Of a stretch of 32,000 nucleotides of DNA, positions 2,936-24,495 are shown in pieces. The notes below the pieces were generated by a model. The model saw only the letters and a list, made by a program, of their open reading frames with translations, was not told the origin of the DNA and ran no database searches. Source of the DNA: Trichodesmium erythraeum IMS101 (GTDB lineage Bacteria > Cyanobacteriota > Cyanobacteriia > Cyanobacteriales > Microcoleaceae). Each line of letters starts with the position of its first letter. Position 1 is the stretch's first letter. The position numbers and the translations under genes are program-made. The DNA lies in the NCBI RefSeq assembly GCF_000014265.1, contig NC_008312.1:4260001-4292000 (forward strand). Reading direction: 5' to 3'.

Positions 2936-2969
2936 GTAGTCTAAAATACAGACCAGGAGGTAGAAAGTC

Positions 2970-10079: not shown

Positions 10080-10483
10080 GGACTTTTTTTGACTAGGAAA
10101 AGGCTAGTACCTTTATGTGTTAATGCTTTGATGTTTAATCAGGAAGCCCTAATTACAGTATGGAATTTCAATATGTTTTTTGTTTTTGTATAAGAGGAGG
10201 TTATGGCTAAAGTCAGAAAGTAGGAATTTAGAATTTAGAAGTCAGGTTATTAAGTTGTTAAAGGACTTATAGCTGGTTTTGGGCAAATGATGTGGGGAGA
10301 TCTTGCCCTGGTAGGCGTGTCCTATAAACCTGAAATATGCTGTCTGTAGGGAAACCCAGAAATCCAGTTTTTTTTGCTAAAGTATTCTGAAAAAACAATG
10401 ATTTATCGTAAAAACTGGTTTTTTTTGGTTGGTCCTAGTTTTAATGATGATCGATAAAAAATTCAAAAATACAATAAATAAAT

Positions 10484-10948
10484 ATGAAAAAGTCATTAGA
10501 AATTTCATCAATAAAATCTCAAAGTTGGTCTATTGAAAAGTTGCCTGGTTTAAGTAAAAAGGATCAAATATTACTAACAAAAAATGGTATTAATACTACT
10601 AGAAAATTATTGGAAATAACTAAAACTTCTGAAGAAAAATTAATCCTAGCAAGTCAATTAAAAATTAATGTTCAATCTGTAAAAAAATGGGTTGCATTAG
10701 CAGATTTAGCTAGAGTTCCTACTGTTGGTTGTGAATATTGCGGACTACTACTTCATGGGGGTATTGTTTCAGTTTCTCAACTATCTCAAACTTCTGTCCA
10801 TAAATTGCATCAACAAATACTTAAGCTACAAATATCAACTATGCAACGTCGTGACCTTTCTCCGGCGTTAGATTTAGTTAATAAATGGATTCAACAAGCT
10901 CAGTTTTTATCGCTCTATAGCAGGTTAAGGAAGAAAAAAGAGGTTTAA
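10484..10948 (+). CDS. DUF4332-like (helix-hairpin-helix) domain protein
   Basis: KLPGLSKKDQILLTKNGINTTRKLL and LADLARVPTVGCEYCGLLLHGGIVSVSQL resemble the two HhH-like units of small cyanobacterial DUF4332 proteins. Confidence 0.45.
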   Translation: MKKSLEISSIKSQSWSIEKLPGLSKKDQILLTKNGINTTRKLLEITKTSEEKLILASQLKINVQSVKKWVALADLARVPTVGCEYCGLLLHGGIVSVSQLSQTSVHKLHQQILKLQISTMQRRDLSPALDLVNKWIQQAQFLSLYSRLRKKKEV

Positions 10949-11217
10949 AAATCAGAAAAAGACTTCAATTTGCAGTGGATATTTTCCAGACACTTAAAAT
11001 TTTTCATGAGCTTGTTTCGACGGGGGAAAAAAATTTGTAGTAATGCTGGATATCGCTTTTGCTATATTGCTAAGGTAAGCCTCTGCGATCGCTGCTTGTG
11101 CAATTTACCCAATAATAGGGCGGTTGTCATTAGAGTAGGGGCTTTCTGGCTATTCGCTTTTGTTTGGTTTTACTTATGACTATGTGGTTGATAAATCTGA
11201 AAAGTGCTGTAAAGTGT

Positions 11218-11297
11218 CTGATTTTCGGTTTTCAAGGTCACCTATTTTAATTATTGTGGGCTGATCATGGCATAAAAATTAAGGGGTAAATATATCC
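11218..11297 (-). repeat. Right arm of the ~80-bp inverted repeat (partner of 10001-10079)
   Basis: See the left arm. The arms enclose about 1.14 kb. Confidence 0.45.
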
Positions 11298-11498
11298 GAC
11301 TTCCTCTTCTATAAATTGTCTGTTCCTTAGTAAAAACCTTGCATGCAACGTCCCTGCTTTTGTAATTAAAAAATGACAAAGTAAGATTTTTAGGACTTAC
11401 ACAAACTTGTAGATAATACACTATCTGTAGAGGGCAAATGCTATCTGAGGAGGGTAAATACTATTTGCCTCTACTGGAGGTTCTGCCTAAATTCCTGG

Positions 11499-11957
11499 CA
11501 GGGATGATTTTATCGCTCCCATAAGTACATTAATATTTGTTTTCTGTTTGTTAATGTTTAAACCTAAAACCTAAAACCTAAAACTTAAAACCTAAAATTA
11601 GCGATCGCTCCCATAAGTACATTGATATTTGTTTTCTGTTTGTTAATGTTTAAACCTAAAACCTAAAACCTAACACCTAAAACCTTAAATTAGCGATCGC
11701 TCCCATAAGTACATTGATATTTGTTTTCTGTTTGTTAATTTTTAAACCTAAAACCTAAAACCTAAAACTTCAAACCTAAAATTAGCGATCGCTCCCATAA
11801 GTACATTGATATTTGTTTTCTGTTTGTTAATGTTTAAACCTAAAACCTAAAACCTAAAACTTAAAACCTAAAATTAGCGATCGCTCCCATAAGTACATTG
11901 ATATTTGTTTTCTGTTTGTTAATTTTTAAACCTAAAACCTAAAACCTAAAACCTAAC
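11499..11957 (+). repeat. Tandem array: five head-to-tail copies of a 91-92-bp unit, each with a HIP1 site and a nested heptamer tract (AACCTAA)n
   Basis: CTCCCATAAGTAC recurs at 11516, 11608, 11700, 11792 and 11883. Each unit is GCGATCGC + CTCCCATAAGTACATTGATATTTGTTTTCTGTTTGTTAAT(G/T)TTT + 4-5 heptamers (CCTAAAA). The array ends 11 nt from the stop codon of the minus-strand gene at 11969. Confidence 0.9.
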
Positions 11958-11968
11958 TTGGCTTTGTT

Positions 11969-13429
11969 TCATTTGAGTCCGGGCAATTTCCACTCGCGGA
12001 TAGTTTTGGTAACGGCATCGCGAGTAGCCTCAGCTCCAAAACCCCAAGCTAGCAGAGCAAAATAATCTGTCCAAAGATTTGCTCCAAAGGTGGGTTGAGT
12101 GACATAAAGTTGTCTAAAGCCTGCACCCGCCAGGAGGAAAATTGCAATTGTATAACTTAATAATTGAAACAAAAATAGATTGCGGGCAGACCCTACAGGA
12201 TTAAGTTGTAGAGGTTGAACATCAGGAACTGGGTTAGGAAGGCGGGCAGGATAGGTGCTACTAACACCCCTGGAAGTTATGCTGAGGTTACTTTGAGCTT
12301 CATTGTTGGAAATTTGTTGTTGTTTAATGGCTTGGTCTAGTTGTTTGAGTTCATTATCAATCTCCTGCTCCCATCTTTGGAAAGCTTCTAGCTCAGTTGG
12401 AGAAAGATTATTTAATTCCTGCTGCAAGTATTGAGATATATCTCTAAGTGCTTGCTCTTGTTGTGCTGACCCAGTTAACTCATTTCTAAGATTATCGAAT
12501 CTCTCTAGTTTAGCTTCACCTCCCAGGTAACGAACCAGTTGTTGCCGCAAATCATTTAACTCTTTCCTCAACTGTTCGGGATTTTCTTTATCAGCTGTTT
12601 GTCGCTTAATATTCTCTAAGTAGCTACCTACTGTTTGTACATAGGGAGCATCAGTGGTGAGATTATCTAGATCTAGAAAGGAAGACTCAAATTCGGATAA
12701 AGCTAACCAGTCTTCTCTACTTTTTCGCCATTTATCCCAAGTTGTTTGAGCTTTTGCTACAGCTTGCTTTGCCTCATCCCATCGCTTGTTTGTTAAATCG
12801 GTGTCTACATCAATTAGATATCCATTGATTTTTACCTGAAATGATTTTACTAGTTCTGGGTCAGCTTTCATCTGAGTGCGAATGCGGCTAACTAGCACCA
12901 CAATTTCATCACGGTTTCTGCCATCAGTACGGTAGGCAGACATGCCAATACTTACCATAACGCCTAATAGCAAGAGGAATATTGGTCCCAGCCAATGATC
13001 TTTTACTCGTACAATTATAGGTATAACCAGTTGTCCATCAGAATGGATGGCTAGTAAAACACCACTAAATTCACCACTTTTGGCATCGTTTAAGTTGAAT
13101 TCAACTGGGATAGTCAGTGGTTGATTTGGTTCCACTGAGGTTGTGGACAAAATTGGATTAATCGCGCTACCTTGTAAAACGGTGGTTCCATCGGTTCGAT
13201 CCAAATCTAGGCTGAGTATTTGTAAGTTTGCGATGGCCTGATTAGTTTGTAAAACTAGACGGCGCTTCAGGACAGGACAGTAAAAAAAAACTGGACATTT
13301 AGTTCCTACTACGGTTAAATTGGATGGGGTTATGGTAACTTTTGGTTCAGCTTTCACAGGAGGTGCTACCAATACCAAGTTTAGAGCTAGACTCAATAGT
13401 ACCATCATAGTTTTTTGACCGCGCATCAT
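11969..13429 (-). CDS. Secreted/membrane protein: signal peptide, beta-rich ectodomain, TM helix, long cytoplasmic coiled coil, two C-terminal TM helices
   Basis: ORF 11969..13462. The ATG at 13429 (MMRGQKTMMVLLSLALNLVLVAPPVKA/EP) has AGGAG about 8 nt upstream and gives a canonical signal peptide. TM helix LGPIFLLLLGVMVSIGMSAY. Q/E/L-rich heptad region (LRKELNDLRQQLVRYL, ELKQLDQAIKQQQ). C-terminal hydrophobic helices LFLFQLLSYTIAIFLLAGAGF and YFALLAWGFGAEA. Confidence 0.7.
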   Translation of the reverse strand: MMRGQKTMMVLLSLALNLVLVAPPVKAEPKVTITPSNLTVVGTKCPVFFYCPVLKRRLVLQTNQAIANLQILSLDLDRTDGTTVLQGSAINPILSTTSVEPNQPLTIPVEFNLNDAKSGEFSGVLLAIHSDGQLVIPIIVRVKDHWLGPIFLLLLGVMVSIGMSAYRTDGRNRDEIVVLVSRIRTQMKADPELVKSFQVKINGYLIDVDTDLTNKRWDEAKQAVAKAQTTWDKWRKSREDWLALSEFESSFLDLDNLTTDAPYVQTVGSYLENIKRQTADKENPEQLRKELNDLRQQLVRYLGGEAKLERFDNLRNELTGSAQQEQALRDISQYLQQELNNLSPTELEAFQRWEQEIDNELKQLDQAIKQQQISNNEAQSNLSITSRGVSSTYPARLPNPVPDVQPLQLNPVGSARNLFLFQLLSYTIAIFLLAGAGFRQLYVTQPTFGANLWTDYFALLAWGFGAEATRDAVTKTIREWKLPGLK

Positions 13430-13669
13430 ACTAGTTCTCCTGATTCTTTGATTACCTAACATTTTGTTAAAGTATAATTATTATCTGTTATGATACCCCA
13501 GTTTTCCTGCACGGTAAATCATGGTAGGGAGGTTGCATTTATGGAGGTTTCGCTATGGGATATGAAACGCATTTTTGTGATGCAAGGTCCGTACAAAGTT
13601 TTAGTTATGGCGATGTTGTTTATCAATTTGAAAAGGGCTGTAAGTTTAGTTTTTGATAATTATCTTTGT

Positions 13670-14851
13670 TTAATCATGGCTATAGCGATAATCTGCAACT
13701 ATCATATCCCCTAGTCCTTCTGTCTTGGCAGTTGGTTCTTGAATTTCTTCATCATTCTCGATACTCCAACGACGAAGACTATGGAGCACATAAGTCTTAA
13801 GATCGTCTACAGTCACGAAACCCTTTTTCTCCCGGTCTGCATCACCGCTGAGTCCTTCTATTAGGTAGTGGGTGAAGACTCCAGAATTTTTCTCTGGTGA
13901 CTCTAGGGCTTTTTGCTGTGCTGTACTCGCGGCAATTAAGGCAAAACCTTCAGCTAATTCATAAGCATTTTGAATGAATTGGGGCTCGTCAATTCCTCGT
14001 CCGGTTTCGACTCCCATATGACAAGCATCCAATGTCAGTACTAAACGTCTTGCTTTGCTAGAATGCATGGATTTTTTTATGTCGGCTAGAGACAAACCTG
14101 TTTTTTCGATGGTTGGTAAACGGGTATCCCTGACTATGAGCATAGGTTGTTCATCGCGCCCAAGTTTACCGTGACAAGCAAAATACACCAGCAATAGGTC
14201 ATCTACATCGACCATATTGCATAGGTTAATTAATTCAGCTTCTATATTGTTGTGGATGGGGAAGCGGCGGCTATCAGATTCAAGATCATCATGTAAACAC
14301 ATGACTGTGTATCCAAGTTCTTTGAGTTTCTTTTCTAATTTTTGCACATCTTTTACACAGAATTTTAACTTGTGAACTCCTGGATCATTATAGCGGTTGA
14401 CTCCTACCAAAAAAGCCCAACGATTTTTTATGGGTTGACGTTTTTCTTCTTCGAGCTTTCTTTTTTTTGTGCCTCGAATTGTAGTTTCTGTCTTGGTTTC
14501 TGGTTTAAGGTTATCCAGAGTTGAGTTATCTGCAAAAGCATTTTCCAGTTCTATAATTAGATTGACTAGTTGTTGGTGACGTTGATCTTCTTCTTCGATT
14601 AAATCTTTTAAGAGACGTAACAGTAAGACAAGAGCATTTTCTTTGGTGTCACTGTGATATTTGTTATGTAAATAGCTAATTACTAAGTTTACTCTACTGG
14701 CCATACTGTTGGCTTGGGGTAAAAAACGCCAAGGTCTTAGTGGTTGATAAGTGGAAACAATAGACTGAAGGGCGCGATCGCTCTCAAATTGTTCACAGTC
14801 TAACAGAAATTGACGCAATTTTTGATATAGTTCAGGGGGAATGCCAGCCAT
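13670..14851 (-). CDS. Caspase-family (peptidase C14, orthocaspase/metacaspase-like) protease with N-terminal Death-like effector-associated adaptor domain (EAD-type)
   Basis: Intact His-Cys dyad: VYFACHGKLG (His codon 14170-14172) and LTLDACHMG (Cys codon 14011-14013). WAFLVGVNRYN is a typical p20 start. The N-terminal ~85 aa (14597-14851) are homologous to the C-terminus of the 500-aa protein and the N-terminus of the 372-aa protein. Confidence 0.85.
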   Translation of the reverse strand: MAGIPPELYQKLRQFLLDCEQFESDRALQSIVSTYQPLRPWRFLPQANSMASRVNLVISYLHNKYHSDTKENALVLLLRLLKDLIEEEDQRHQQLVNLIIELENAFADNSTLDNLKPETKTETTIRGTKKRKLEEEKRQPIKNRWAFLVGVNRYNDPGVHKLKFCVKDVQKLEKKLKELGYTVMCLHDDLESDSRRFPIHNNIEAELINLCNMVDVDDLLLVYFACHGKLGRDEQPMLIVRDTRLPTIEKTGLSLADIKKSMHSSKARRLVLTLDACHMGVETGRGIDEPQFIQNAYELAEGFALIAASTAQQKALESPEKNSGVFTHYLIEGLSGDADREKKGFVTVDDLKTYVLHSLRRWSIENDEEIQEPTAKTEGLGDMIVADYRYSHD

Positions 14852-15063
14852 ATTATAAGTCTATCAAGGAATTTTGCCTATAGGACTGCCGCTATTATCG
14901 GACAATTTAACGCTGAGATGAATTTCAACCAGCAAGTTAATTGAGCGATACGCGAAACATTTTTTTTTACGTTGTATATTTTATCAAATTCTGAGATAAT
15001 TTAACACTAGTAGTGATTATTTTAACTGAGTATAAACTTATATGAATATTAAAAAAAATAAGG

Positions 15064-15153
15064 GTTTAGTCTTAATATCTTTAGAGGGACTAAAGTCGAA
15101 CTACAAGCCGAATTAATCTATGTTGGGTTTTGTGGCTTCAACCCAACCTACAA
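15064..15153 (+). repeat. Dispersed ~85-nt element, copy A (AATATC(T/C)TTAGAGG(G/A)A(C/A)TAAAGTC...GCCGAATTAATC(T/C)ATGTTGGGTT-N10-AACCCAAC)
   Basis: Collinear with 23041-23124 and 24310-24390. The 3' part forms a hairpin: GTTGGGTT / AACCCAAC with a 10-nt loop. Confidence 0.7.
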
Positions 15154-15186
15154 CTACTATGAGTTGCTGACGGCCTATTTGCTATA

Positions 15187-15582
15187 TTATTTTGTTGAAA
15201 AAAAACTACCAATAATATCAATGCCTCTACTGATCAGGGTTTTCCCTTTTTTTGATAGTTCTGATTCTTTTGACTCGCTGCTCTCAATAACCAAGTTTTC
15301 GATTATCTCCTTGGTTTCCTTTCCTGTGAGAGGAGTAGCACGACCATTTGCAGCTCGAGGATCTGGAATGCTATTAATGCGGATATTAAGAAAAGCATCT
15401 CGAATTTGCGGATGTTCATTACACCAGAGGGCTATGGCATCAGAGATTTTTTCAACATTATCTGGAAGCTTTTGAAGCAACTGCCGCAAATTAGTGCGTT
15501 CTTTTTCTTTGAATAAATTAGGTTGTTTTTTTATTAGGTCGACAAACTTTATTATATTTTCTTCGTATTTAGATAATGACAT
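15187..15582 (-). CDS. Small helical hypothetical protein (131 aa) of the caspase/CHAT module
   Basis: ATG at 15582 preceded by AGGAGG 5 nt upstream (GTCAATAGGAGGAAAAATG). It has the same orientation as all neighbouring genes. No family recognised. Confidence 0.6.
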   Translation of the reverse strand: MSLSKYEENIIKFVDLIKKQPNLFKEKERTNLRQLLQKLPDNVEKISDAIALWCNEHPQIRDAFLNIRINSIPDPRAANGRATPLTGKETKEIIENLVIESSESKESELSKKGKTLISRGIDIIGSFFSTK

Positions 15583-15777
15583 TTTTCCTCCTATTGACTA
15601 ATAGTACAAAATACAACTCAGTAAAAGGGCGATTCAAAGGGCCGAGCGTTCTCTGACATTTTACAGCATATTTCAGATTTATCAGGTACCCCCAAACCGT
15701 CAATATACTGGTAATATATGATTTTTAGCATTTACCCTGTACATCATTCGCCCGAAATCTGCTGTGTCTATATTTTT

Positions 15778-17280
15778 TTATAAACAATACTTAAGCTTTT
15801 CTGCTAATTCAGATAAAGTTTGATTCCGAGTATCTGCTGGATCAATTGTACTACTAAGGGAGTTTACCAAAATAACCAGTACATTCTCATTGGTATCGCT
15901 ACGATACTTATTTACTAAAAAGCCAATCACTAGTCTGACTCGTTGGGCCGTATTTTTACCTTCTGGTAAGCTATTGGCCCAAGGAGAGAGCCGAGCCTGA
16001 CCTTTGAAAAAACTTTGTAGTTCTTGATTAGTTTCAAATTGGTCACACTCTAACAGAGCTTTATACAGTTGATGACGAAGTTCGTCAGTAATTCCTCGGG
16101 TCTTGTTGCCAGAAGGTGTCTGAGTAAGGTTTTCCTTTATTGCGGCTTTTAGATTTTGCAGGTGAGTACGCTTAGGACTCAGGAATTCCAGATCTGCTTG
16201 AATTTGACTTTGCAATTTTTTGCGGATGTAATTTAAAAAATCTTCCCACAAACTTAAGTCAGTATCGGGTAGCTCCCCTAGCTTTTCTAGTTTCATCCTA
16301 TAATTTTTTTCATTAGTAGCAATGGTATTTTTGTGGGCTTCCAATTCCTCTAAGTAGTCAGCATACTTAATATCTATATCCTGTAATTCTACAAGTAATG
16401 GTCTAAGTTGTTCTTGCCTATTTGGTGATCGGGAAATTTGACGGAAGCTTTTCTTGTGCTGTTCTATTTTGCTATACAGTTGTTTGAGCTGACCCTCGCA
16501 CCCGCGAGATTGATGATAGATATACTGTATCTTATGACGACACCACAAAAGAAGAAGTATTAACTCGGATGCCTTATCCATTTTCTTTTCCTCTGGATCC
16601 AGATTTTGGCATTTCAACCAAACTAGAATATGAAGTCGCTGACTAGGGTCTTTATGTCGGCTTTCATATTCAAAAATCGGGTTTCCCAGTAAATGACCTG
16701 TATTTATTAGCTCAGTTCTATTTGTTGTTGGCAGTAATTTAGCAACACAAGCATCTGCAAAATCTTGATGGTTTTCCTGTAATTCACTTGGTTGTCCAAA
16801 AAGTAATAGGGTTTGCCCTAGAGAAGCTTGAATTTGTGAGGGGAGTAGTAGGTATTGGGGATTAAGTTGAGCTAGTTGAGATAGGAAAAAAGTGCTTTGA
16901 GAATGTAGGGTGAAATCTATTGCATAAGTATCGTGTACTCGGTATGGACAGAGTAATCCTTGAAGTTGCCTATCACCAGACTTGGAGGTTATTTCAAAGT
17001 CTAATTTGGTTTGTTGATTAGGTAATAAAATTTCATATTCACTTTCTAGGTTATCTTCTGCTGCGGGAAAATACTGGTTATTTTGATAACTAATTAGTTG
17101 TTGTTGCAGATTTTGCAGTTCTGGAATATTCAGCTTATTTCCCAAATCTACTAACTGTTCCCACAACCGGGGTGCTTTTGAAGTAGGTTTTAATCCCTGG
17201 TTGATACTGTTGCGCAGATGGAAAGCATAGAGTACAAGACTGGGACTATGCAGTCCTATGGTCTGGGGTATTTCTTTCAT
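15778..17280 (-). CDS. Hypothetical protein: unknown ~270-aa N-domain, coiled coil, C-terminal EAD-type adaptor domain
   Basis: The C-terminal 105 aa (15781-16095) read GITDELRHQLYKALLECDQFETNQELQSFFKGQARLSPWANSLPEGKNTAQRVRLVIGFLVNKYRSDTNENVLVILVNSL. They align with the caspase N-terminus at roughly 40% identity by eye. The middle region is heptad-rich (KYADYLEELEAHKNTIATNEKNYRMKLEKL). Confidence 0.7.
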   Translation of the reverse strand: MKEIPQTIGLHSPSLVLYAFHLRNSINQGLKPTSKAPRLWEQLVDLGNKLNIPELQNLQQQLISYQNNQYFPAAEDNLESEYEILLPNQQTKLDFEITSKSGDRQLQGLLCPYRVHDTYAIDFTLHSQSTFFLSQLAQLNPQYLLLPSQIQASLGQTLLLFGQPSELQENHQDFADACVAKLLPTTNRTELINTGHLLGNPIFEYESRHKDPSQRLHILVWLKCQNLDPEEKKMDKASELILLLLWCRHKIQYIYHQSRGCEGQLKQLYSKIEQHKKSFRQISRSPNRQEQLRPLLVELQDIDIKYADYLEELEAHKNTIATNEKNYRMKLEKLGELPDTDLSLWEDFLNYIRKKLQSQIQADLEFLSPKRTHLQNLKAAIKENLTQTPSGNKTRGITDELRHQLYKALLECDQFETNQELQSFFKGQARLSPWANSLPEGKNTAQRVRLVIGFLVNKYRSDTNENVLVILVNSLSSTIDPADTRNQTLSELAEKLKYCL

Positions 17281-17464
17281 TATTTGGGCAGTTTGGACTG
17301 GTAATCTTAAGTATTTATTGTATTATAATTTTCCAGAAAAGAGGAGGTAGGTAGGAAGTTTACATCTAACCTCCCTAGGGAGTAGGGAAGTAATTGATGA
17401 TTTCTGTGGTATAATTGACTAGATTTTTTCTTATTGGAGATGTGTGATTGAAGTTTTTTCATTA

Positions 17465-20400
17465 TTAGCCGATCGCGCAAAACCCTGCCCAGTAGAATGG
17501 TGATTCAAAGGGCTGATACTTATCTGACATTTGATGCAAACGACAGGCTAGATTCATTTCCAGGGTTGGACTCAGGGGGATTTTATTTTCTAAAATCCAT
17601 TTTTCCAACTCTTTTTTGGTTAGGTCTCGCAGCCAAAGTTGAGCTTGGTTAAGAGCGATCGCTACATTAGTCTGCTCCTGGGAATTTAGCAAATTTTTAT
17701 ACAACTGAATCATCAAAAGGGCTGTGGAGAGGTCATTAACAGTCCAGAGACTACTAACCACACTTGGACTCCCTGCATAGAGAAAACCGCTGGGCAGACC
17801 AATATATTCATCCCCAAGGGATTTAAAATCGCTCAGGCCTGTTTCGCAGGCGGAGAGGCTGGTGAGGCGACATTGACGCAAGTCTAAGGCGAAAATATCC
17901 CCTAAAGTTAGGCATTTTTCCAAATTAATCCCATTTCCATCTGCAGTTTCCTGAGGAGTTGGAGTTGTACTCCCTGCCAACAGCAGAGCAGAATCAATAG
18001 GCGATTTAAAATTAAAATAACCGCGACAGGCAAAATGAGCCACGTTGGTTTCAGCCAGACGTTCCTGGGTGAGGGCAGTTTTGGTAGCTTGTTGTCGTTC
18101 TAAGACGTCATCGTTAGGATAAAAGTCAGCGCGAATAGTGGCAACTTCTGGCTCGGTAAAACTGAGGTCTTCTGTAGGGTTCGTGACACTGAAAAAATGT
18201 TTGAGTGAGGAACGGTTCCAGGTTTGACTCAGTTGCAGCAGTTGGAGGCTGGGAGCATAGCTGAGACTTCCAGGAAAGCGCTCCATGAGTAAATCTCCAT
18301 TGGCTAAAGGCATGGCATGGAGGGGAAATAGGTGTAGGAACCGATGGGGAATGAGGATGAGGCGGTCGCATTTCTTTCCTTGCTGGTAAAAAATCTCGCC
18401 GACCTGGGTGAGGAGGCCATCGATATCAAGAATCTCGGCCAACCTTTTGAGGTTGGAGGCTAAATGGTCTTGCCACTGTTTTTTGTCTTCTTGCAAATAT
18501 GCAGTCAAATAATCATCTCCCCAATTTACTAAGGCTTCAAGCGTTTTTTTGTCAGTTTGTTTGACTAGCAGACTGTTGGCGGTCAGAATAAAGGTGATAA
18601 TTTTATCCTTCGTAATATACCACTCAATTATGGTAGTGCTTTCATCAATTCGACTTTGGGTATCACTCCAAGAAATCGGCTCTACCCTCTGAGTCAGGCT
18701 GAAGCTGGAGTCTATAGGCTTGATCCGTTCAAGTGTCTCCTCTAGCTGTTGCCTTGATAGCTGCAATTCTTGTTGTAGCTGTTGCTGTGATGCCATGAGC
18801 GATCGCCGCTGGGGTTCTTCTGGTGGGCTTGTATTTCCAGATAGTCGCTCTAGAACTCCTTGTAACCGCCTTTCTAGTGATGGAATGGTGCTTCGTAGTC
18901 GATCTAGCTCGGCGATGATCTCTTGGGGAACATCGCCTTTAGGATAGATGTCGCGCTTGGCTAGAAGTTCGACTAGGTTGCGAGTTTTGCTGCGTTCGGC
19001 TGTTTTGAAGGCTTGATCCCATTGCTCTAAATTGATGTATGTTTGCACCAGATTTTGATAAACTGATATTGCTTCTGCTATAATCTCTTGGCGGCGTTTG
19101 TCGGTAGTTGCCCAACTGCGGCTGAGTTCCACTGCAGCTATGGCTTTTTCATAGTTGTCGGCTGCGAGTTGCCAGTTTTGGTTGTCGAAATATAGGTAGC
19201 CTAAGTTGTTGGTGGTTTGTAGATGGTCGATGGGGTTTGCTTCCAGGGTACGCACCAGCAAAGCTTGTTGGAATGCAGCAATGGCGACTTCAATATTTTC
19301 GGCTTTTTCTCCCCTTATTCTGTAAATGTAGGCAGCGCCGAGATTATTTTGAGTCATTGCCCAGTCCATGGGGAAGTCAGTTTGGGTGAGTACCTGTAAA
19401 GCTTGTTGGTATTCAGCAATGGCAGCTTCAATATTTTCGGCTTTGTCTCCCCTTATTCTGTAAATGTAGGCAGCGCCGAGATTATTTTGAGTTGTTGCCC
19501 AGTCCATGGGGAAGTCTGTTTGGGTGCGCACCAGCAAAGCTTGTTGGTATGCAGCAATGGCGGCTTCAATATTTTCGGCTTTGTCTCCCCTTATTCTGTA
19601 AATGTAGGCATTGCCGAGATTATTTTGAGTTCTTGCCCAGTCCATGGGTAAGTCAGTTTGGGTGTACACCAGCAAAGCTTGTTGGTATGCAGCAATGGCA
19701 GATTCAATATTTTCGGTTTTGTCTCCCCTTATTCTGTCACTGTAGGCAGCGCCGAGATGATTTTGAGTCATTGCCCAGTCGATGGGTAAGTCAGTTTGGG
19801 TGCGCACCAGCAAAGCTTGTTGGCATGCAGCAATGGCAGCTTCAATATTTTCGGCTTTGTCTCCCCTTATTCTGTAAATGTAGGCAACGCCGAGATTATT
19901 TTGAGTCATTGCCCAGTCGATGGGTAAGTCAGTTTGGGTGCGCACCAGCAAAGCTTGTTGGCATGCAGCAATGGCAGCTTCAATATTTTCGGCTTTGTCT
20001 CCCCTTATTCTGTAAATGTAGGCAACGCCGAGATTATTTTGAGTCATTGCCCAGTCCATGGGTAAGTCAGTTTGGGTGAACACCAGCAAAGCTTGTTGGC
20101 ATGCAGCAATAGCAGCTTCAATATTTTCGGCTTTGTCTCCCCTTATTCTTTCTCTGTAGGCATTGCCGAGATTGTTTTGAGTTCCTGCCCAGTTGATGGG
20201 GAAGTCAGTTTGGGTGTACACCAGCAAAGCTTGTTGGCATGCAGCAATGGCAGCTTCAATATTTTCGGCTTTGTCTCCCCTTATTCTGTAAATGTAGGCA
20301 ACGCCGAGATGATTTTGAGTTCCTGCCCAGTCCACGGGGAAGTCAGTTTGGGTGCGCACCAGCAAAGCTTGTTGGCATGCAGCAATGGCAGCTTCAATAT

Positions 20401-22600
20401 TTTCGGCTTTGTCTCCCCTTATTCTTTCACAGTAGGCAATGCCGAGATGATTTTGAGTCATTGCCCAGTCCATGGGGAAGTCAGTTTGGGTGCGCACCAG
20501 CAAAGCTTGTTGGAATGCAGCAATGGCGGCTTCAATATTTTCGGCTTTGTCTCCCCTTATTCTTTCTCTGTAGGCATTGCCGAGATTATTTTGAGTTCCT
20601 GCCCAGTCCATGGGGAAGTCTGTTTGGGTGCGTACCAGCAAAGCTTGTTGGAATGCAGCAATGGCGGCTTCAATATTTTCGGCTTTGTCTCCCCTTATTC
20701 TGTCACTGTAGGCAATGCCGAGATTATTTTGAGTTCCTGCCCAGTCCATGGGGAAGTCTGTTTGGGTGAACACCAGCAAAGCTTGTTGGCATGCAGCAAT
20801 AGCAGCTTCAATATTTTCGGCTTTGTCTCCCCTTATTCTGTTACTGTAGGCAAGGCCGAGATTATTTTGAGTTTTTGCCCAGTCGATGGGGAAGTCAGTT
20901 TGGCTGTGCACCAGCAAAGCTTGTTCGTATGCAGCAATGGCAGTTTCAATATTTTCGGCTTTGTCTCCCCTTATTCTGTCACTGTAGGCATTGCCGAGAT
21001 TATTTTGAGTCATTGCCCAGTCCATGGGGAAGTCAGTTTGGGTGCGCACCAGCAAAGCTTGTTGGTATGCAGCAATGGCGGCTTCAATATTTTCGGCTTT
21101 GTCTCCCCTTATTCTGTTACTGTAGGCAATGCCTAGATTATTTTGAGTTGCTGCCCAGTCGATGGGGAAGTCAGTTTGGGTGCGCACCAGCAAAGCTTGT
21201 TGGCATGCAGCAATGGCAGCTTCAATATTTTGGGCTTTGTCTCCCCTTATTCTGTCTCTGTAGGCAACGCCGAGATTATTTTGAGTCATTGCCCAAATTT
21301 CCCGGTGACTCTTAGAGGTAAAGACTTTTAGCACGACTTCATAACCTGCAATACTAATTTCCATGTTGTTTGCTTTGTTACCCAGAGGAAATTCCTGAAT
21401 GAGGCCACTGAAATAACCAATAGACATAGCCATATCTTCTGCTACATCCGCCTCCACTTCAGAAAATATAGCAGTTGCCCGGTGTCGCAATATATCAGCA
21501 CAGTTACCATCAAGCTTATCTAAGTTTTGTTCTAGGAGTGGGTAAACAACTTTCGAGTTACCTTTGCTTTGTCTGGTTGCCTGCAATACCTCTCCCAAAA
21601 ACTTCAAATAATTTTGTTTGTCTATATCAGTTTTAATAGTACTTTTTAGTTCTTCAATGTCATTATTTGATTTTTGATTAGCTAATTTAACAGTCTCAAG
21701 CAACATCTCGTTTATCAGAGTGGGGACTTTAGAGAGATCTACTCCTAGATTTTCCAGAACCCTTACAGCTACTCCTTCTCCTTCTCGAATTAAACCCAAA
21801 AGTAAATGCTCTGTCCCAATATAATTATGTCCTAATTGCTGTGCTTCCTCCAAAGAGAATTCTAAAACTGTTTTAGCTCTAGGAGCAAATGGAATTTCTG
21901 CTTCTACATCTCCCGAACCACGGCCAATTATTTTTTCCACTTCAATCCGAGCATCCTTTAGGTTTACGCCCATATATTTTAGGACTTTGGCCGCTACCCC
22001 TGTTCCTTCTCCAATTAAACCCAGAAGGATTTGTTCTGTCTCTACAAAGTCATGTCCCAAGCGACGGGCCTCATCCTGGGCCAACATGATCGCTTTGATT
22101 GGTTTTTCGGTGAAGCGATCAAACATACTTTTAGACCTCTGACGAATATCCACCTCTACCTCATCAGTCTCAAGCAACATCTCGTTTATCAGAGTGGGGA
22201 CTTTAGAGAGATCTACTCCTAGATTTTCCAGAACCCTTACAGCTACTCCTTCTCCTTCTCGAATTAAACCCAAAAGTAAATGCTCTGTCCCAATATAATT
22301 ATGTCCTAATTGCTGTGCTTCCTCCGAAGAGAATTCTAAAACTGTTTTAGCTCTAGGAGCAAATGGAATTTCTGCTTCTACATCTCCTGAACCACGGCCA
22401 ATTATTTTTTCCACTTCAATCCGAGCATCCTTTAGGCTTACGCCCATAGATTTTAGGACTTTGGCTGCTACCCCTGTTCCTTCTCCAATTAAACCCAGAA
22501 GGATTTGTTCTGTATCTACAAAGTTATGTCCCAAACGACCAGCCTCATGCTGGGCCAACATTATCGCTTTGATTGGTTTTTCGGTGAAGCGTTCAAACAT
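17465..22600 (-). CDS. Giant 1711-aa protein: 2 x ClpC-type Clp_N domain, lead-in domain, ~15 x 46-aa TPR-like repeats, linker, C-terminal CHAT (caspase-like) domain with His-to-Arg at the catalytic His position
   Basis: N-terminus [50 protein letters not shown]... is the ClpC/ClpB N-domain signature and occurs twice. The repeat unit is [46 protein letters not shown]. CHAT motifs are [10 protein letters not shown] (expected HxxxHG) and [10 protein letters not shown], then [19 protein letters not shown] and [10 protein letters not shown]. Confidence 0.9.
19240..21300 (-). repeat. Intragenic array of ~15 near-identical 138-bp (46-codon) TPR-like repeats
   Basis: RIRG(D/E)K counted 15 times in the translation. 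The period matches the 138 bp measured directly in the homologous array of the neighbouring gene (CCATGG at 24792, 24930, 25068). Confidence 0.9.
21692..22600 (-). repeat. Tandem 474-bp duplication encoding the Clp_N module (copy 1 22166-22600, copy 2 21692-22126, 39-bp linker)
   Basis: AGTCTCAAGCAACATCTCG... starts at 21692 and again at 22166. The 145-aa copies differ at 8 residues (E3D, H18D, G21R, N26D, D29E, S51Y, S55N, S92L). The promoter-distal ~230 nt differ at only 2 nt by eye. Confidence 0.9.
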
Positions 22601-22671
22601 ATTTTCAGACTTTCGTTAGGGTTTCTAGCAAATATAACTACTATGATTTCGCTTAAAACGACATAATTCAG

Positions 22672-22696
22672 TTATCAATTAATTATCAATTATCAA
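22672..22696 (-). promoter_or_regulatory. Three direct TTGATAA heptamers 72-96 nt upstream of the giant CHAT gene start (possible -35 or operator cluster)
   Basis: The plus strand reads TTATCAA at 22672, 22683 and 22690. On the coding strand this is TTGATAATTGATAATTAATTGATAA. No convincing -10 box was identified. Confidence 0.2.
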
Positions 22697-23040
22697 TTTA
22701 TTATCCCATTTTGAGATGGCTTCGGGGTGTTGATGGCCTTCCCATTAGTGGCCCTCAATATATTCTCTCTCATAATAACAATATTTTACACAATTAAACA
22801 ACAGAAATTTGCGATCGCTTCACGAACTACATTCATTATTTCCTTTAATTGTTAAATTAATAATTTCGGGCAATGTAAAATGATTAATTATTTATTCTAA
22901 TTTATTTACAGGTTGAACCAGAGATAGTTTTGCAATATTGCCAAAAATTTTTTGTTGAGAATTATAGGTTTTGTTAGATTTTTGATGATGTTGGGGAACG
23001 GAAATATTTTTTATACACAAAAAGAAGTTTATAATTGAAA

Positions 23041-23124
23041 CTTAGTCCTAATATCCTTAGAGGGAATAAAGTCGTACGAGCCGAATTAATCCATGTTGGG
23101 TTTCCTTACCTCAACCCTACCTAG
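23041..23124 (+). repeat. Dispersed ~85-nt element, copy B
   Basis: CCTAATATCCTTAGAGGGAATAAAGTCG-TACGAGCCGAATTAATCCATGTTGGGTTTCCTTACCTCAACCCTACC is collinear with copies A and C. Confidence 0.7.
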
Positions 23125-23176
23125 GACTGACTAAAACCTATAAATTAGGGGATAGCCAGACAAGGACTATGGCATC

Positions 23177-23285
23177 CAGGGATGATTTTGGGGTCAGTTT
23201 AGAAAAGCAAATTGATACTTATTATCTGGTTGTTAATCTTTAAACCTAAAACCTAAAACCTAACACCTAAAACCTAAAACCTAAC
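23177..23285 (+). repeat. Solo copy of the 92-bp heptamer-bearing unit, same orientation as the 11499-11957 array
   Basis: CAGGGATGATTTT...ATTGATACTTATTATCTGGTTGTTAATCTTTAAACCTAAAACCTAAAACCTAACACCTAAAACCTAAAACCTAAC parallels 11499-11600 (CAGGGATGATTTT...ATTAATATTTGTTTTCTGTTTGTTAATGTTTAAACCTAAAACC...). Confidence 0.65.
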
Positions 23286-23290
23286 GCTTC

Positions 23291-23326
23291 ATTGTTGGGT
23301 TTCCTTGCCTCAACCCAGCCTACAAA
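23291..23326 (+). repeat. Partial copy (hairpin half only) of the dispersed ~85-nt element
   Basis: ATTGTTGGGTTTCCTTGCCTCAACCCAGCCTACAA matches the 3' half of copies A-C. Confidence 0.55.
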
Positions 23327-23569
23327 TAAGAGATAGATTTATTTATAGAAATTGGTTAGCGATCGCCCCTCAATTCAGTAATAATTTTTGTTCTAATTAA
23401 CTAACAAACTGATATAATATAAGTAAGAGTTAGCCATTAGGAAAGAGATTTGGAGGCTTGAGATTGCTATCATGACAGACTGCAACCGGAACCCTGTTCC
23501 TCCCAATGACAGAAATGCCTTGCCCGTAGGTAAGTCCTGATCAAGTTCAAAAATAATCAAAAAAATATT

Positions 23570-24199
23570 ATGGTTAAAACAATACCAGCTAGTCAAATTG
23601 ACCTATATTCTTTAGAAGAAAATTTTGGTTTAAAACGGGCATACGAACCCACTTTTTTCCCGGAATGGCAAGAAAATTTACCAGAATTGACGGAATTGGA
23701 AAAACAAGAATTAGTGCAGCTTAAAGCGGATTATTTGCGTCTTTCTAAACGTCCCATGTTAGAACCTCTGGTAAAAATGGTGGTATTATCACCTTTATTG
23801 AGGGCAGCAGGTTTTTATCGGGAACCCTTTTTTCTCTCCGCTGAAAAACAGATAAAAATTACTTCCGAAGATGGGGGAGCGATCGTTACAGGTAAAATTG
23901 ATATATTGGTTTATACCCCTCAATTTTGGGTATTAGTAATTGAGGCGAAACGGGTTGAATATTCATTACAAGTAGGTATTCCTCAAATATTGGCTTATAT
24001 GTTAGACTCTCCAGAAATCGAACAATCTGCTTTTGGATTTGTGACAAATGGTAGTGAGTTTAGATTTGTTAAACTACTTAAAAGAGATACTATCCAATAT
24101 GGATTATCTCGTTTATTTTCCATAGATAGTGGGGAAGATTTATATACTGTTGTGAGTATTTTTAAGAGCCTCGCTCAATTCGTGATTCAGCAAAATTAA
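23570..24199 (+). CDS. PD-(D/E)XK-type (HsdR-N-like) putative nuclease-fold protein, paralogue of 8906..9508
   Basis: GKIDILVY...WVLVIEAKRVEYSLQVGIPQILAYM gives a D...E-x-K...Q arrangement. It is the only plus-strand gene inside the island and sits between the two repeat-array genes. Confidence 0.55.
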   Translation: MVKTIPASQIDLYSLEENFGLKRAYEPTFFPEWQENLPELTELEKQELVQLKADYLRLSKRPMLEPLVKMVVLSPLLRAAGFYREPFFLSAEKQIKITSEDGGAIVTGKIDILVYTPQFWVLVIEAKRVEYSLQVGIPQILAYMLDSPEIEQSAFGFVTNGSEFRFVKLLKRDTIQYGLSRLFSIDSGEDLYTVVSIFKSLAQFVIQQN

Positions 24200-24309
24200 T
24201 GGCGCTTATATTATGTTTTAAGAATCTAGAGTATTTATGAAAAAACTTAGAAAAAATTGGGGTAGTCCTGCATATATTAGTAGCTTTGTTGTCTGAAAGT
24301 AGCGATCGG

Positions 24310-24390
24310 CAATATCCTTAGAGGAACTAAAGTCCAACTACGAGCCGAATTAATCTATGTTGGGTTTCGTTGCCTCAACCTAGTCTACAA
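24310..24390 (+). repeat. Dispersed ~85-nt element, copy C
   Basis: CAATATCCTTAGAGGAACTAAAGTCCAACTACGAGCCGAATTAATCTATGTTGGGTTTCGTTGCCTCAACCTAGTCTACAA. Confidence 0.7.
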
Positions 24391-24495
24391 TCTTGAACAA
24401 GAGTCAAATAAGATCTTCAAAATTACTATTTATTAAATTAAGTAGAGTGAGCAAAGATTGATCAACCCTACAAAACTATTATCTCAACAATTGAT

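Follow-up and report, generated by a model that had tools for sequence, protein, structure and literature searches.

The question raised by this locus of Trichodesmium erythraeum IMS101 (Tery_2763 down to about Tery_2759) is whether five neighbouring genes form a single functional module. The first-pass annotation had described them as a second module whose two proteases recall a proteolytic cascade, with Csx29 of type III-E CRISPR systems and the bacterial gasdermins as parallels. Its domain calls, its functional grouping of the genes and the pairing of TPR-CHAT with another protease held up; an autonomous second module, a single unit of five genes, a cascade from CHAT to the caspase and the parallels did not. 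The five genes are two separable conserved cassettes rather than one module. Cassette A comprises Tery_2763, Tery_2762 and Tery_2761, and cassette B comprises a bDLD1-C14 caspase and a membrane protein. Both are predicted cell-suicide/immunity systems of filamentous cyanobacteria.

Gene content of the locus

The window is the whole stretch of DNA that was analysed (32,000 nt). The five co-oriented minus-strand genes were found at exactly the ORF positions given before (Table 1), with gaps of 184, 195, 335 and 207 bp between successive genes.

Table 1. Coordinates of the genes and the spacer in the window
Feature	Position	Strand	Basis
Tery_2763, TPR-CHAT protein, 1711 aa	17465–22600	(-)	Pfam; identical to ABG51946.1
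Tery_2762, N-domain + bDLD1 protein, 500 aa	15778–17280	(-)	Pfam, AF2
Tery_2761, small helical protein, 131 aa	15187–15582	(-)	homologue clusters, alignment
bDLD1-C14 caspase, 393 aa, ABG51943.1 (Tery_2760 by gene order)	13670–14851	(-)	Pfam, NCBIfam, PADLOC
Membrane protein, 497 aa	11969–13462	(-)	AF2, Foldseek, homologues
Tery_2768, bDLD1 + iSTAND	29908–31026	(-)	Pfam
MoxR-like AAA+ ATPase	28976–29944	(-)	Pfam AAA_5/AAA, motifs
vWA (CoxE-like) component	27744–28979	(-)	weak Pfam VWA_CoxE match
1083-aa TPR protein	24496–27747	(-)	Pfam TPR, tandem repeat
Spacer between the two gene groups	22601–24495	no strand	Pfam, PADLOC, six-frame HMM scan

The domain calls were reproduced by Pfam. Tery_2763 matched four Clp_N repeats (4.9e-70), a TPR_10 array (2.8e-41) and CHAT (5e-45), Tery_2762 a C-terminal bDLD1 (5.8e-08) and the caspase both bDLD1 (6.3e-10) and Peptidase_C14 (1.3e-16). 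In the relevant passages of Kaur et al. 2020 (PMC7159879), bDLD1 appears as EAD3, and the label 'EAD-tailed' for Tery_2762 was correct. The membrane protein had no real Pfam match. As had been stated, Pfam, PADLOC and NCBIfam found no gasdermin, CRISPR or nucleotide-signalling gene in the 14 larger ORFs scanned.

Trichodesmium sp. MAG_R01, which represents a second Trichodesmium clade, has all five in synteny, and dozens of further cyanobacterial loci contain one or the other sub-cassette. Hence, the grouping is not due to chance. Co-occurrence in relatives, whose absence the annotation had named as evidence against it, is strongly conserved.

The group earlier called module I lies beyond the spacer. 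Tery_2768 (iSTAND 2.2e-18, bDLD1 1.7e-11 in Pfam) is the third component of a vWA-MoxR ternary system, and a motif check found no Walker A motif in it. In the MoxR-like ATPase, Walker A (GEPGSGKT) and Walker B (VILIDE) are both intact. Its orthologues (67–72% identical) come after iSTAND in three other loci (L003, L004 and L007), and orthologues of the vWA component (identity 57–59%; VWA_CoxE match of 3.7e-05 in IMS101) hold the same position there. The 1083-aa protein begins with a vWA-linker-like N-terminal domain of ~235 aa, continues with a TPR array (14 copies at a 138-nt period) and closes with an 85-aa tail. It has no CHAT domain, whereas its positional equivalents in most other genomes examined carry one. 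The vWA-linker-like domain recurs after vWA genes, where it is fused to a TPR-CHAT or N-domain protein.

The spacer (1.9 kb) contains a plus-strand PD-(D/E)xK/HSDR_N-like gene (23570–24199), bracketed by ~70-nt direct repeats (23050–23116 and 24311–24380). An HMM scan of its six-frame stretches found no CHAT or other system remnants.

Cassette A and the CHAT catalytic site

Tery_2763 carries two ClpA/B/C-type N-domains, ~20 TPR units and the CHAT caspase-like domain (about 17468–18415), in this order. The gene has tandem repeats of 474 nt (1.9 copies) and 138 nt (14.9 copies); the four Clp_N repeats arose through tandem duplication. At the catalytic His position of CHAT stands Arg1526 (codon CGC, 18023–18025), and the catalytic Cys1585 (17846–17848) is retained. 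Among the 118 CHAT domains aligned, 114 carry the His. Besides IMS101, three T. erythraeum-type assemblies have the Arg allele (four in total), whereas His is intact in MAG_R01, and the dyad is intact both there and in other genera. This makes a two-protease cascade unlikely in T. erythraeum. To judge from these residues, its CHAT domain probably acts only as a scaffold or sensor, and the C14 caspase would be the sole protease still active.

In the AF2 model of Tery_2762 (pLDDT 89.6), the N-domain (nt 16123–17280) comprises an alpha+beta domain (aa 1–225) and three long helices (aa 231–386), followed by a flexible linker (aa 387–398) and a six-helix death-like bDLD1 (aa 396–500, nt 15781–16095). 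The family has 228 homologues with differing C-termini and 267 genomic relatives, with the invariant motifs HDTYAxDxT, SLGQT and GxPIFEY. The N-domain matched no model in Pfam, NCBIfam or PADLOC, and PDB and BFVD searches with Tery_2762 gave no match at E<1e-3.

Tery_2761 is helical and has a low-complexity tail; its Trp53 is invariant and an R-x-P/A-G-G stretch is conserved. It had no match in Pfam, NCBIfam, PADLOC or PDB. Its family (length ~115 aa; 116 clusters in a representative library of 1.8 billion proteins) completes the CHAT/N-domain triad as its constant third member, with homologues in all related loci (identity 47–62%). In P0061, the small protein is appended C-terminally to the N-domain-bDLD1 protein, and in L003, L018 and L020 it is fused to TPR-CHAT proteins.

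We divided the related loci into class A, with an N-domain-bDLD1 protein, and class B, whose N-domain proteins mostly end in a TM tail (60 of 63). Other N-domain proteins carry in this C-terminal slot bDLD1 alone or bDLD1 with a trypsin, metallophosphoesterase, PNP or SAVED domain; the output slot of Tery_2762 holds bDLD1 only. Among the 49 class-B loci with upstream sequence, the only ones taken into the triad counts, the order CHAT, small protein, N-domain was complete in 41. In class A, the CHAT gene was directly upstream in 11 of 12 loci.

The pairing of TPR-CHAT with a second protease is recurrent: most homologues of Tery_2762 have a trypsin fused in cis after bDLD1, and others have a bDLD1-caspase encoded in trans. 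An active TPR-CHAT protein could start a two-protease cascade: it would cleave and activate either the C14 caspase or the EAD proteins, and these would then act on targets downstream. Two caspase-superfamily proteases are encoded together here, MAG_R01 (the sister lineage) and other genera have an intact dyad, multi-peptidase arrangements (CHAT with a cis-fused trypsin) dominate the family and peptidase cascades are explicitly discussed in passages of Kaur et al. (PMC7159879/PMC8195603). Nevertheless, we consider such a cascade highly improbable. Apart from the Arg allele in all four T. erythraeum-type assemblies, no second protease was detected in 41 of the 49 class-B loci, meaning that the natural partners of CHAT are the N-domain and small proteins and not the caspase.

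Cassette A is a caspase ternary system that fits CATRA/CATASP as known from published names and short descriptions. On this basis, Tery_2762 is probably the 'CATRA' protein and Tery_2761 probably 'CATASP'; no library model matches either. Both arrangements have three neighbouring genes (a TPR + CHAT protein, a larger protein whose C-terminal 'effector position' varies, and a small protein), are phyletically restricted and are predicted to be protease-gated. The IMS101 cassette differs in that its effector position holds only the bDLD1 adaptor, with no TM tail or enzyme, in the two N-terminal ClpN domains and the Arg of the CHAT protein, and in the gene order (CHAT, N-domain, small protein instead of CHAT, small protein, N-domain).

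Type III-E Craspase (gRAMP, TPR-CHAT Csx29 and Csx30/31) is more distant. It shares the TPR-CHAT architecture and a small neighbouring protein that is a possible protease substrate or regulator. However, Cas7-11/gRAMP, a CRISPR array, Csx30 and Csx31 are absent from the IMS101 locus, its CHAT lacks the catalytic His, the Csx29 NCBIfam model scored 63 bits on Tery_2763 against a cut-off of 300, and PDB Csx29 chains gave only fragmentary matches (E about 4e-4).

Cassette B: the caspase and its membrane partner

The caspase ABG51943.1 has an N-terminal bDLD1 (aa 2–96) and a C14 p20 caspase/orthocaspase domain (aa 144–373) with an intact His227/Cys278 dyad. It matched a PADLOC caspase model (9e-15), and its best NCBIfam match was the 'caspase, EACC1-associated type', at 107.8 bits and thus under the cut-off of 140.

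The AF2 model of the membrane protein (pLDDT 82.9) starts with a signal peptide. A PapD/ASH-like beta-sandwich outside the cytoplasm (aa 40–154) and TM1 (about 158–180) come next, followed by a cytoplasmic helical bundle (aa 206–389), a disordered linker (aa 390–424) and a TM hairpin (aa 425–490). The earlier label 'multi-TM coiled-coil' was accordingly right. Only the Ig-like domain gave Foldseek matches. Met12–19 may be the true start of the protein.

A bDLD1-caspase gene immediately precedes that of the membrane protein in L009, L010, L016, L089–L091 and L169; the pair occurs in Rivularia, Nostoc, Plectonema and metagenomes. Around the membrane-protein homologues, 34 C14 genes were counted per 616 kb, compared with 2 per 996 kb in control loci. 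However, a C14 gene was ≤3 kb away in only 25 of 80 loci, and GAF-histidine kinases adjoin distant homologues. The protein could therefore be a sensor or scaffold and not an effector.

As a sensor, its Ig-like domain would detect envelope perturbation or phage adsorption and signal via the bundle to the caspase, whose real substrates would be elsewhere (Tery_2762, Tery_2761 or housekeeping proteins). The receptor-like build (periplasmic domain, TM, cytoplasmic helical bundle) and the kinase neighbours speak for this, and passages of Kaur et al. 2020 (PMC7159879) suggested that the EACC1 TM protein paired with caspases is a sensor. We regard it as unlikely. Among the 220 homologues, the invariant residues concentrate in the Gly-rich C-terminal TM hairpin and not in the extracytoplasmic domain, and the caspase's own recruitment domain, bDLD1, points to cytoplasmic sensors. 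Moreover, EACC1 itself, the earlier proposed sensor, proved to be a small membrane effector that is cleaved by the caspase and then forms pores (Evans et al. 2025 preprint, bioRxiv 10.1101/2025.11.14.688446).

This is an experimental precedent for a caspase that cuts its neighbour to release a pore-forming fragment, and cassette B likewise has a C14-type caspase gene beside a membrane-active partner. The differences are considerable. EACC1 is a ~110-aa, single-TM protein encoded upstream of the caspase, whereas the IMS101 partner (signal peptide and three TM helices) is encoded downstream and showed no detectable sequence similarity to it. The IMS101 caspase is short and bDLD1-tagged, not sensor-fused. 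The IMS101 membrane protein is also constitutively membrane-inserted, unlike latent soluble pore-formers, which counts against an effector mechanism.

A probable bDLD1-wired locus

The three bDLD1 copies in the window (Tery_2762, the caspase and Tery_2768) belong to one Pfam family. The closest pair is the caspase and Tery_2762 copies (45% identity); the iSTAND copy is 29–30% identical to the other two. Wherever an N-domain-bDLD1 protein had no cis enzyme and the flanks were long enough (the window, L001/L012, L016, L004+L009 and L007), a trans bDLD1 enzyme was encoded nearby. The EAD principle and bDLD1-iSTAND systems are described in passages of PMC7159879 and PMC8195603.

In Nostocales and Oscillatoriales, cassette A usually adjoins a bDLD1-iSTAND/MoxR/vWA system, so modules I and II are most likely one bDLD1-wired network. 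An autonomous second module does not agree with this: most class-A relatives place the triad beside a core like module I, and iSTAND-MoxR-vWA directly follows the N-domain-bDLD1 gene in 10 of 14 class-A loci. Moreover, several genomes (P0061, L017 and L021) have the vWA-linker domain and the N-domain in one fusion protein, and the TPR arrays of the 1083-aa protein and Tery_2763 share 76–82% protein identity, which implies ongoing exchange between the groups.

These observations, with the shared Pfam family of the bDLD1 copies, make it rather unlikely that the five genes are self-contained, with the TPR, ClpN and N-domain parts as the only sensors and iSTAND as a separate tenant. Such independence would agree with the low identity of the iSTAND bDLD1 and with the spacer and its opposite-strand gene. 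CHAT, N-domain-bDLD1 and small-protein genes also occur with no iSTAND system ≤10 kb away in L001/L012, L016 and L025, the first two of which also contain the bDLD1-caspase; in L010, the caspase-membrane pair is accompanied by other bDLD1-STAND proteins. Because the cassette genes of L001, L010 and L016 lack an iSTAND system at ≤10 kb, they need not be coupled to module I.

The locus may be in partial decay, as indicated by the His-to-Arg change and the CHAT-less 1083-aa protein. The T. erythraeum genome is known for its low coding density, and the canonical gene order is rearranged, with a repeat-flanked insertion in between. That the locus is a non-functional remnant is nonetheless quite improbable. 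All nine ORFs are full-length, including the long repeat protein, and four independent assemblies, each from a different ocean region, retain the Arg allele in an ORF that is intact otherwise. Ocean metagenomes contribute 123 near-identical members to the caspase cluster, the catalytic motifs of caspase and MoxR are intact, and Tery_2760 is transcribed and regulated (PMC7947765).

The closest parallels come from the Aravind laboratory, which defined the CATRA, iSTAND-ternary and EAD/bDLD systems computationally (PMC7159879, PMC8195603), and from the protease/membrane-effector logic of EACC1. According to passages of these two papers, the vWA-MoxR-iSTAND systems likewise have an N-terminal bDLD1 on iSTAND beside MoxR and vWA genes, a separate vWA-linker + repeat protein and nearby bDLD1 proteins bearing proteases; adjacent EAD copies are most alike, and the systems are enriched in multicellular cyanobacteria. 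The partner in these passages is a bDLD1-trypsin, whereas the partners in IMS101 are the C14 caspase and the CATRA-like protein, and the IMS101 post-vWA protein lost, or never had, CHAT. The passages do not describe the CHAT triad and the iSTAND core as systematically interleaved. Apoptosomes, inflammasomes and bacterial gasdermin systems would share a STAND/repeat sensor, a death-fold adaptor, proximity activation of a caspase and a membrane-damaging substrate. However, the IMS101 locus has no gasdermin, its sensor is an inactive STAND gated by MoxR-vWA and bDLD1 is only distantly related to CARD/Death.

With moderate confidence, we read the locus as a composite immunity/programmed-cell-death locus, in which the two cassettes and the iSTAND/MoxR/vWA system share bDLD1 and the caspase is predicted to act on the membrane protein. 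The whole mechanism is pieced together from domain content and gene neighbourhood. One or more of the repeat arrays, ClpN, the N-domain and the iSTAND-MoxR-vWA switch would sense a trigger (possibly an invader or proteotoxic/nutrient stress). The sensing proteins would then oligomerise, and their bDLD1 would recruit the bDLD1-caspase through homotypic death-fold interaction. The recruited caspase would be activated by induced proximity, like CARD-caspases on apoptosomes and inflammasomes, and would cut the membrane protein in its cytoplasmic bundle or linker. The cut may free or rearrange the Gly-rich TM hairpin and damage the membrane, and this would lead to the death or growth arrest of the infected or stressed filament cell.

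Genes and repeats of the five-gene set

The ORF listing returned the five minus-strand genes of the first-pass annotation at exactly the same coordinates, with gaps of 184, 195, 335 and 207 bp, and its domain calls were borne out by the Pfam scan. Tery_2763 (1711 aa) combined TPRs with a caspase-superfamily domain: it carried four Clp_N repeats, corresponding to two complete ClpA/B/C-type N-domains, a long TPR_10 array (2.8e-41) and a C-terminal CHAT domain (5e-45). Tery_2762 (500 aa) had a bDLD1 domain at its C-terminal end, and the 393-aa protein comprised bDLD1 and Peptidase_C14. As bDLD1 is the EAD3 of Kaur et al. 2020, the earlier 'EAD' labels were right. No Pfam family matched the 131-aa and 497-aa proteins.

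Exact-sequence matches placed the window in Trichodesmium erythraeum IMS101 and identified the CHAT protein as Tery_2763, the 500-aa protein as Tery_2762, the 131-aa protein (the small protein) as Tery_2761 and the iSTAND protein of the adjacent module I as Tery_2768. The caspase was ABG51943.1 by exact sequence and Tery_2760 by gene order. The N-domain (first ~385 aa of Tery_2762), the small protein, the 497-aa membrane protein and both ends of the 1083-aa TPR protein of module I (a vWA-linker-like domain and an 85-aa tail) matched no Pfam, NCBIfam or PADLOC family, even at E-values up to 1–10.

The two ClpN N-domains of Tery_2763 arose by a recent tandem duplication, judging from a tandem 474-nt unit (x1.9, 96% identity). 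Both TPR genes contained arrays of a 138-nt (46-aa) unit (14–15 copies each, 92–93% identity), and the two arrays were 76–82% identical in protein. This likeness suggests that the arrays of the two gene groups have evolved in concert or exchanged sequence by gene conversion. Long plus-strand ORFs over the arrays, including those at 19.4–21.3 kb, were rejected as genes, since they read the 138-nt TPR repeat in antisense. Scans for promoters (36 vs 30 expected) and terminators (7 vs 12) did no better than chance and were uninformative on transcription units, and the Rfam scan of the window gave no RNA family.

Positions of genes, repeats and sites in the window
Feature	Position	Strand	Remark
Low-GC region	1-11900		GC 27-37%, few ORFs
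Succinyl-CoA-ligase-like gene	1308-2180
DUF3768 protein	6020-6961
Aldo/keto reductase	7522-8625
DUF4332 protein	10484-10948
Arg1526 codon of Tery_2763	18023-18025	-	CGC (His codon: CAC or CAT)
138-nt array, Tery_2763	19246-21295	-
Rejected ORF	19492-21315	+
Tandem 474-nt unit	21691-22610	-	Tery_2763 ClpN region
~70-nt direct repeat, first copy	23050-23116
AAACCTA microsatellite, x 6.1	23242-23284		in spacer
~70-nt repeat, partial third copy	23274-23315
PD-(D/E)xK / HSDR_N-like gene	23570-24199	opposite to the two gene groups	in spacer
~70-nt direct repeat, second copy	24311-24380
85-aa tail of 1083-aa protein	24496-24750	-
1083-aa TPR protein	24496-27747	-	Pfam
Rejected ORF	24739-26790	+
138-nt array, 1083-aa protein	24752-26710	-
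vWA protein	27744-28979	-	VWA_CoxE 3.7e-05, weak (Pfam)
MoxR-like AAA+ ATPase	28976-29944	-	AAA_5 2.2e-12 (Pfam)
bDLD1-iSTAND, Tery_2768	29908-31026	-	iSTAND PF19995 2.2e-18 (Pfam)

The N-domain family and its neighbours

The N-domain carried invariant HDTYAxDxT, SLGQT and GxPIFEY motifs. Its family was nearly confined to filamentous cyanobacteria, with a few members in Desulfobacteraceae and Parabeggiatoa. Close relatives (class A) ended either in bDLD1 itself or in a further part after it: trypsin, metallophosphoesterase, nucleoside phosphorylase or metallophosphoesterase-SAVED. In the more distant relatives of class B the tail was hydrophobic, and TM segments were predicted in 60 of 63 of them vs 0 of 16 class A proteins. 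In the AF2 model of Tery_2762 (pLDDT 89.6), an alpha+beta domain preceded three long helices, and a flexible linker led from these to a six-helix bDLD1. In Foldseek searches of PDB and BFVD, the N-domain model had no match at E<1e-3; matches of the YwmB, CorA and ClyA type were weak (TM-scores 0.2–0.4) and were given no weight. The small-protein profile found nothing credible in the PDB.

Many N-domain-bDLD1 fusions had a Met immediately ahead of the G-I/L-P motif with which bDLD1 opens (...NDMPGIP..., ...DNMRGLP...; alignment A1, columns about 712–720). The free-standing caspase and iSTAND proteins have their start Met one residue before this motif (MAGIP, MSGLP). The retained Met looks like a gene-fusion scar.

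The neighbourhood survey covered 78 genomic loci found via the family alignment and 10 loci from exact-protein look-ups (comparison loci, L numbers), scanned with iterated HMMs from the window proteins. Among the 49 class B loci with enough sequence, a CHAT gene lay ≤1.5 kb upstream in 45, a small-protein homologue (~115 aa) immediately upstream in 42 and both were present in 41, the triad order being TPR-CHAT, small protein, N-domain-TM. For class A, a CHAT gene was directly upstream in 11/12 loci, and bDLD1-iSTAND, MoxR and vWA genes followed directly after the N-domain gene in 10/14. Past the vWA gene, there was usually a vWA-linker-TPR-CHAT protein and a small protein, the latter being present in 12/14 class A loci. 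Some genomes have no iSTAND gene nearby, and the five genes might act independently of module I. Partners were found fused. In P0061, an N-domain-bDLD1 homologue, the small protein was joined to the C-terminus (50% identity, E 8e-32). Small proteins were also fused to TPR-CHAT proteins in L003, L018 and L020. P0061, L017 and L021 had the vWA-linker-like domain joined to the N-domain. The genes of the two groups are habitual partners. The first-pass annotation had staked its gene grouping on co-occurrence in related genomes, and the conserved triad, the iSTAND neighbourhood and the fusions therefore uphold it.

Module I lay upstream of the five genes on the same strand. The vWA-MoxR-iSTAND ternary core (iSTAND, MoxR and vWA genes in a row) was present in the window, with intact MoxR Walker motifs, and orthologues (57–72% identical) had the same order in L003, L004 and L007. 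The opening ~235 aa of the 1083-aa protein (putatively vWA-linker-like) was seen again downstream of vWA genes and at the start of P0061. At the place of its 85-aa tail, the positional equivalents in most other genomes examined carried CHAT; the sole look-alike of the tail among the fetched loci was an ORF in L031 (1137–2384).

A 1.9-kb spacer with the opposite-strand PD-(D/E)xK gene separated the two gene groups. Direct repeats of ~70 nt (92–93% identical) bracketed a 1.26-kb segment with this gene, and the repeat core TGTTGGGTTTCNTTNCCTCAACC occurred three times in the window, always in the spacer (0 expected by chance). The bracketed segment is possibly a small element, mobile or recombinogenic, which broke up the ancestral gene order. 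Pseudogene fragments of CHAT or other system genes were sought in the spacer, and none were found. In Trichodesmium MAG_R01 (L169), the five-gene set was likewise flanked by DUF4332 and aldo/keto reductase genes and one unannotated 200-aa gene, so the island boundary is conserved on the side of window positions 1–11900.

CATRA likeness and the CHAT active site

The CATRA/CATASP system was reportedly defined by Burroughs and Aravind in 2020. The literature names a 'caspase-dependent CATRA ternary conflict system', and a passage of PMC8195603 mentions a variable 'effector position'. By published description alone ('caspase and TPR repeat-associated', variable effector position), the triad of TPR-CHAT, small and N-domain proteins resembles CATRA. 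This fit makes it probable that the triad is a CATRA ternary system; we go no further than probable because neither the N-domain nor the small protein matched a profile in the Pfam, NCBIfam and PADLOC libraries. Adjacent to the N-domain gene in most class B loci, the small protein is the candidate for CATASP, which is described as a small protein constantly associated with CATRA. Tery_2763 shares TPR and CHAT with the CATRA system, but its catalytic His1526 is replaced by Arg.

The motif H-F-S/A-C-H-G was found in 114 of 118 aligned CHAT domains and reads HFACRG in the window. The Cys motif (LSACETG) was intact. The Arg allele was also found in T. erythraeum GBRTRLIN201, Trichodesmium sp. ALOHA_ZT_67 and one ENA contig. 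A sequencing error was ruled out, as four independent assemblies share the Arg. The substitution is thus real and lineage-wide, and the 1711-aa ORF is intact apart from it. The CHAT protein of Trichodesmium sp. MAG_R01 (97% identical) kept the His. Because caspase-fold proteolysis rests on a His-Cys dyad, the substitution should, by analogy, abolish or cripple proteolysis by Tery_2763. The CHAT protein in T. erythraeum would then be a scaffold or sensor only. A proteolytic cascade with an active CHAT protein acting on the caspase is accordingly disfavoured in this species. Tery_2763 is a predicted natural pseudo-protease allele with a wild-type comparator in MAG_R01. The locus as a whole may be decaying, but the ORFs are intact, retention is population-wide and passages of PMC7947765 report that Tery_2760 is transcribed and regulated.

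Proposed bDLD1 wiring, the caspase–membrane protein pair and a candidate circuit

Pfam found bDLD1 on Tery_2768 (1.7e-11), the caspase (6.3e-10) and Tery_2762 (5.8e-08), so the window holds three copies, which the iterated HMM recovered at E-values of 1e-32 to 1e-35. The caspase and Tery_2762 copies were 45% identical, and each was 29–30% identical to the iSTAND copy. Every sufficiently long locus with an N-domain-bDLD1 protein lacking a cis enzyme had a trans bDLD1 enzyme nearby. In L007 the trans enzyme was a second N-domain-bDLD1-metallophosphoesterase-SAVED protein; in the window and in L001/L012, L016 and L004+L009 it was a caspase. Loci with a cis-fused trypsin or metallophosphoesterase showed no bDLD1-caspase. 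The presence of a trans enzyme where the cis enzyme is missing suggests that the caspase fills the slot held by a fused protease in Nostocales. A cis/trans pattern of this kind is what the 'EAD principle' (PMC7159879, PMC8195603) would predict. Other defence genes at the related loci support a defence-island context: the SAVED protein of L007 (19433–21512), Cas1, reverse transcriptase and Cas_APE2256 genes with a group II intron RT in L001 (1–3312), and a CHAT-nSTAND1-WD40 giant protein in L009 (17370–21416).

The C14 caspase (PF00656, 1.3e-16) had an intact His-Cys dyad (YFACH227G, LDAC278H) and qualifies as an orthocaspase/C14 p20 caspase homologue. Tery_2760 appears among the T. erythraeum p20 sequences in a passage of PMC7475262, and a passage of PMC2853523 gives T. 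erythraeum the largest metacaspase complement of 33 cyanobacterial genomes surveyed. The 497-aa membrane protein belongs to a ~485-aa family. Its AF2 model (pLDDT 83) began with a signal peptide and a PapD/ASH-like beta-sandwich. TM1 then led to a cytoplasmic helical bundle, which a disordered linker joined to a TM hairpin. Invariant residues clustered in the Gly-rich hairpin, and Foldseek matched the Ig-like domain alone.

A bDLD1-C14 caspase was directly upstream of the membrane protein in L009 (Rivularia, about 5 kb beyond the iSTAND system of the same genome), L010 (Nostoc TCL240-02, flanked by bDLD1-NB-ARC and bDLD1-AAA proteins), L016 (Plectonema), three metagenomic contigs (L089–L091) and L169 (Trichodesmium MAG_R01). 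A C14 gene adjoined a membrane-protein homologue within 3 kb in 25 of 80 metagenomic loci, and C14 genes numbered 34 per 616 kb around these homologues vs 2 per 996 kb in control cyanobacterial loci. The link to caspases was not universal, and the family serves more than one signalling context. GAF-histidine kinase genes, not caspases, were directly upstream of distant homologues (about 28–31% identity) in L133, L137, L142, L145 and L149, and a CHAT-EAD7 protein was in this position in L132.

Domain identities, synteny, fusions, the bDLD1 similarity pattern and active-site states are observed, and from them we infer the following steps. The TPR/ClpN arrays, the N-domain and/or the iSTAND-MoxR-vWA switch would sense an invader or stress and then oligomerise. 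Homotypic bDLD1 contacts would recruit the C14 caspase, which would be activated by proximity. The caspase would cut the cytoplasmic part of the membrane protein, freeing the conserved hairpin to damage the membrane. Alternatively, the membrane protein may be a sensor and not an effector. The precedent for the cleavage step is EACC1, for which a sensor role was first proposed (a passage of PMC7159879) and which is now shown to be a caspase-activated pore-former (bioRxiv 10.1101/2025.11.14.688446).

EACC1 is a small single-TM protein encoded 5' of its caspase, whereas the partner here has 497 aa and lies 3'. No product showed similarity to EACC1, not even the TM hairpin when E-values as high as 10 were allowed, and the hairpin was rejected as an EACC1 relative. 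The window caspase scored 107.8 bits against the EACC1-associated subfamily NF047832 (curated cut-off 140) and is related, below threshold. The ClpN fusion of Tery_2763, also seen on TPR-CHAT in L057, parallels the chaperone fusions noted in EACC1 systems and hints, by analogy, at sensing of misfolded or tagged proteins. Csx29, the TPR-CHAT protein of the type III-E Craspase, has gRAMP/Cas7-11, Csx30, Csx31 and a CRISPR array as neighbours; against its model (NF041237), Tery_2763 reached 63 bits (cut-off 300). Pfam, PADLOC, NCBIfam, repeat and Rfam scans gave no Cas protein or CRISPR array in the window, and no gasdermin family matched in the 14 ORFs scanned with Pfam, PADLOC and NCBIfam, in agreement with the first-pass annotation on both counts.

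The iSTAND ternary, EAD/bDLD1 and probably CATRA components are of kinds known by computational prediction. The passages retrieved by term search contain no description of a CHAT triad regularly interleaved with, and fused to, the iSTAND core, of bDLD1 in the effector slot of a CATRA-like protein, of the bDLD1-caspase/membrane-protein pair, of the ClpN-TPR-CHAT architecture or of natural loss of the CHAT catalytic His. Tentatively, and at rather long odds, the caspase and membrane protein would be an undescribed protease-gated membrane death effector pair with gasdermin/EACC1-like function, which an apoptosome-like bDLD1 hub in filamentous cyanobacteria would merge with the CATRA-type triad and the iSTAND/MoxR/vWA switch into one decision circuit.

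This wiring predicts bDLD1-bDLD1 pairing and caspase cleavage of the neighbouring membrane protein. For the natural CHAT His-to-Arg allele, loss of activity is predicted, with MAG_R01 as the natural His control. Two computationally defined systems, the CATRA-like triad and the iSTAND ternary system, regularly lie interleaved, and even fusions between them occur. Should the wiring prove real, it would be a compact bacterial counterpart of animal death-fold signalling, from sensor via adaptor and caspase to membrane damage. Caspase-like activity has for a long time been associated with the collapse of Trichodesmium blooms, and we know of no pathway behind it. The locus bears on Trichodesmium cell death: if the model is true, the circuit could belong to the caspase-dependent programmed cell death implicated in bloom collapse.
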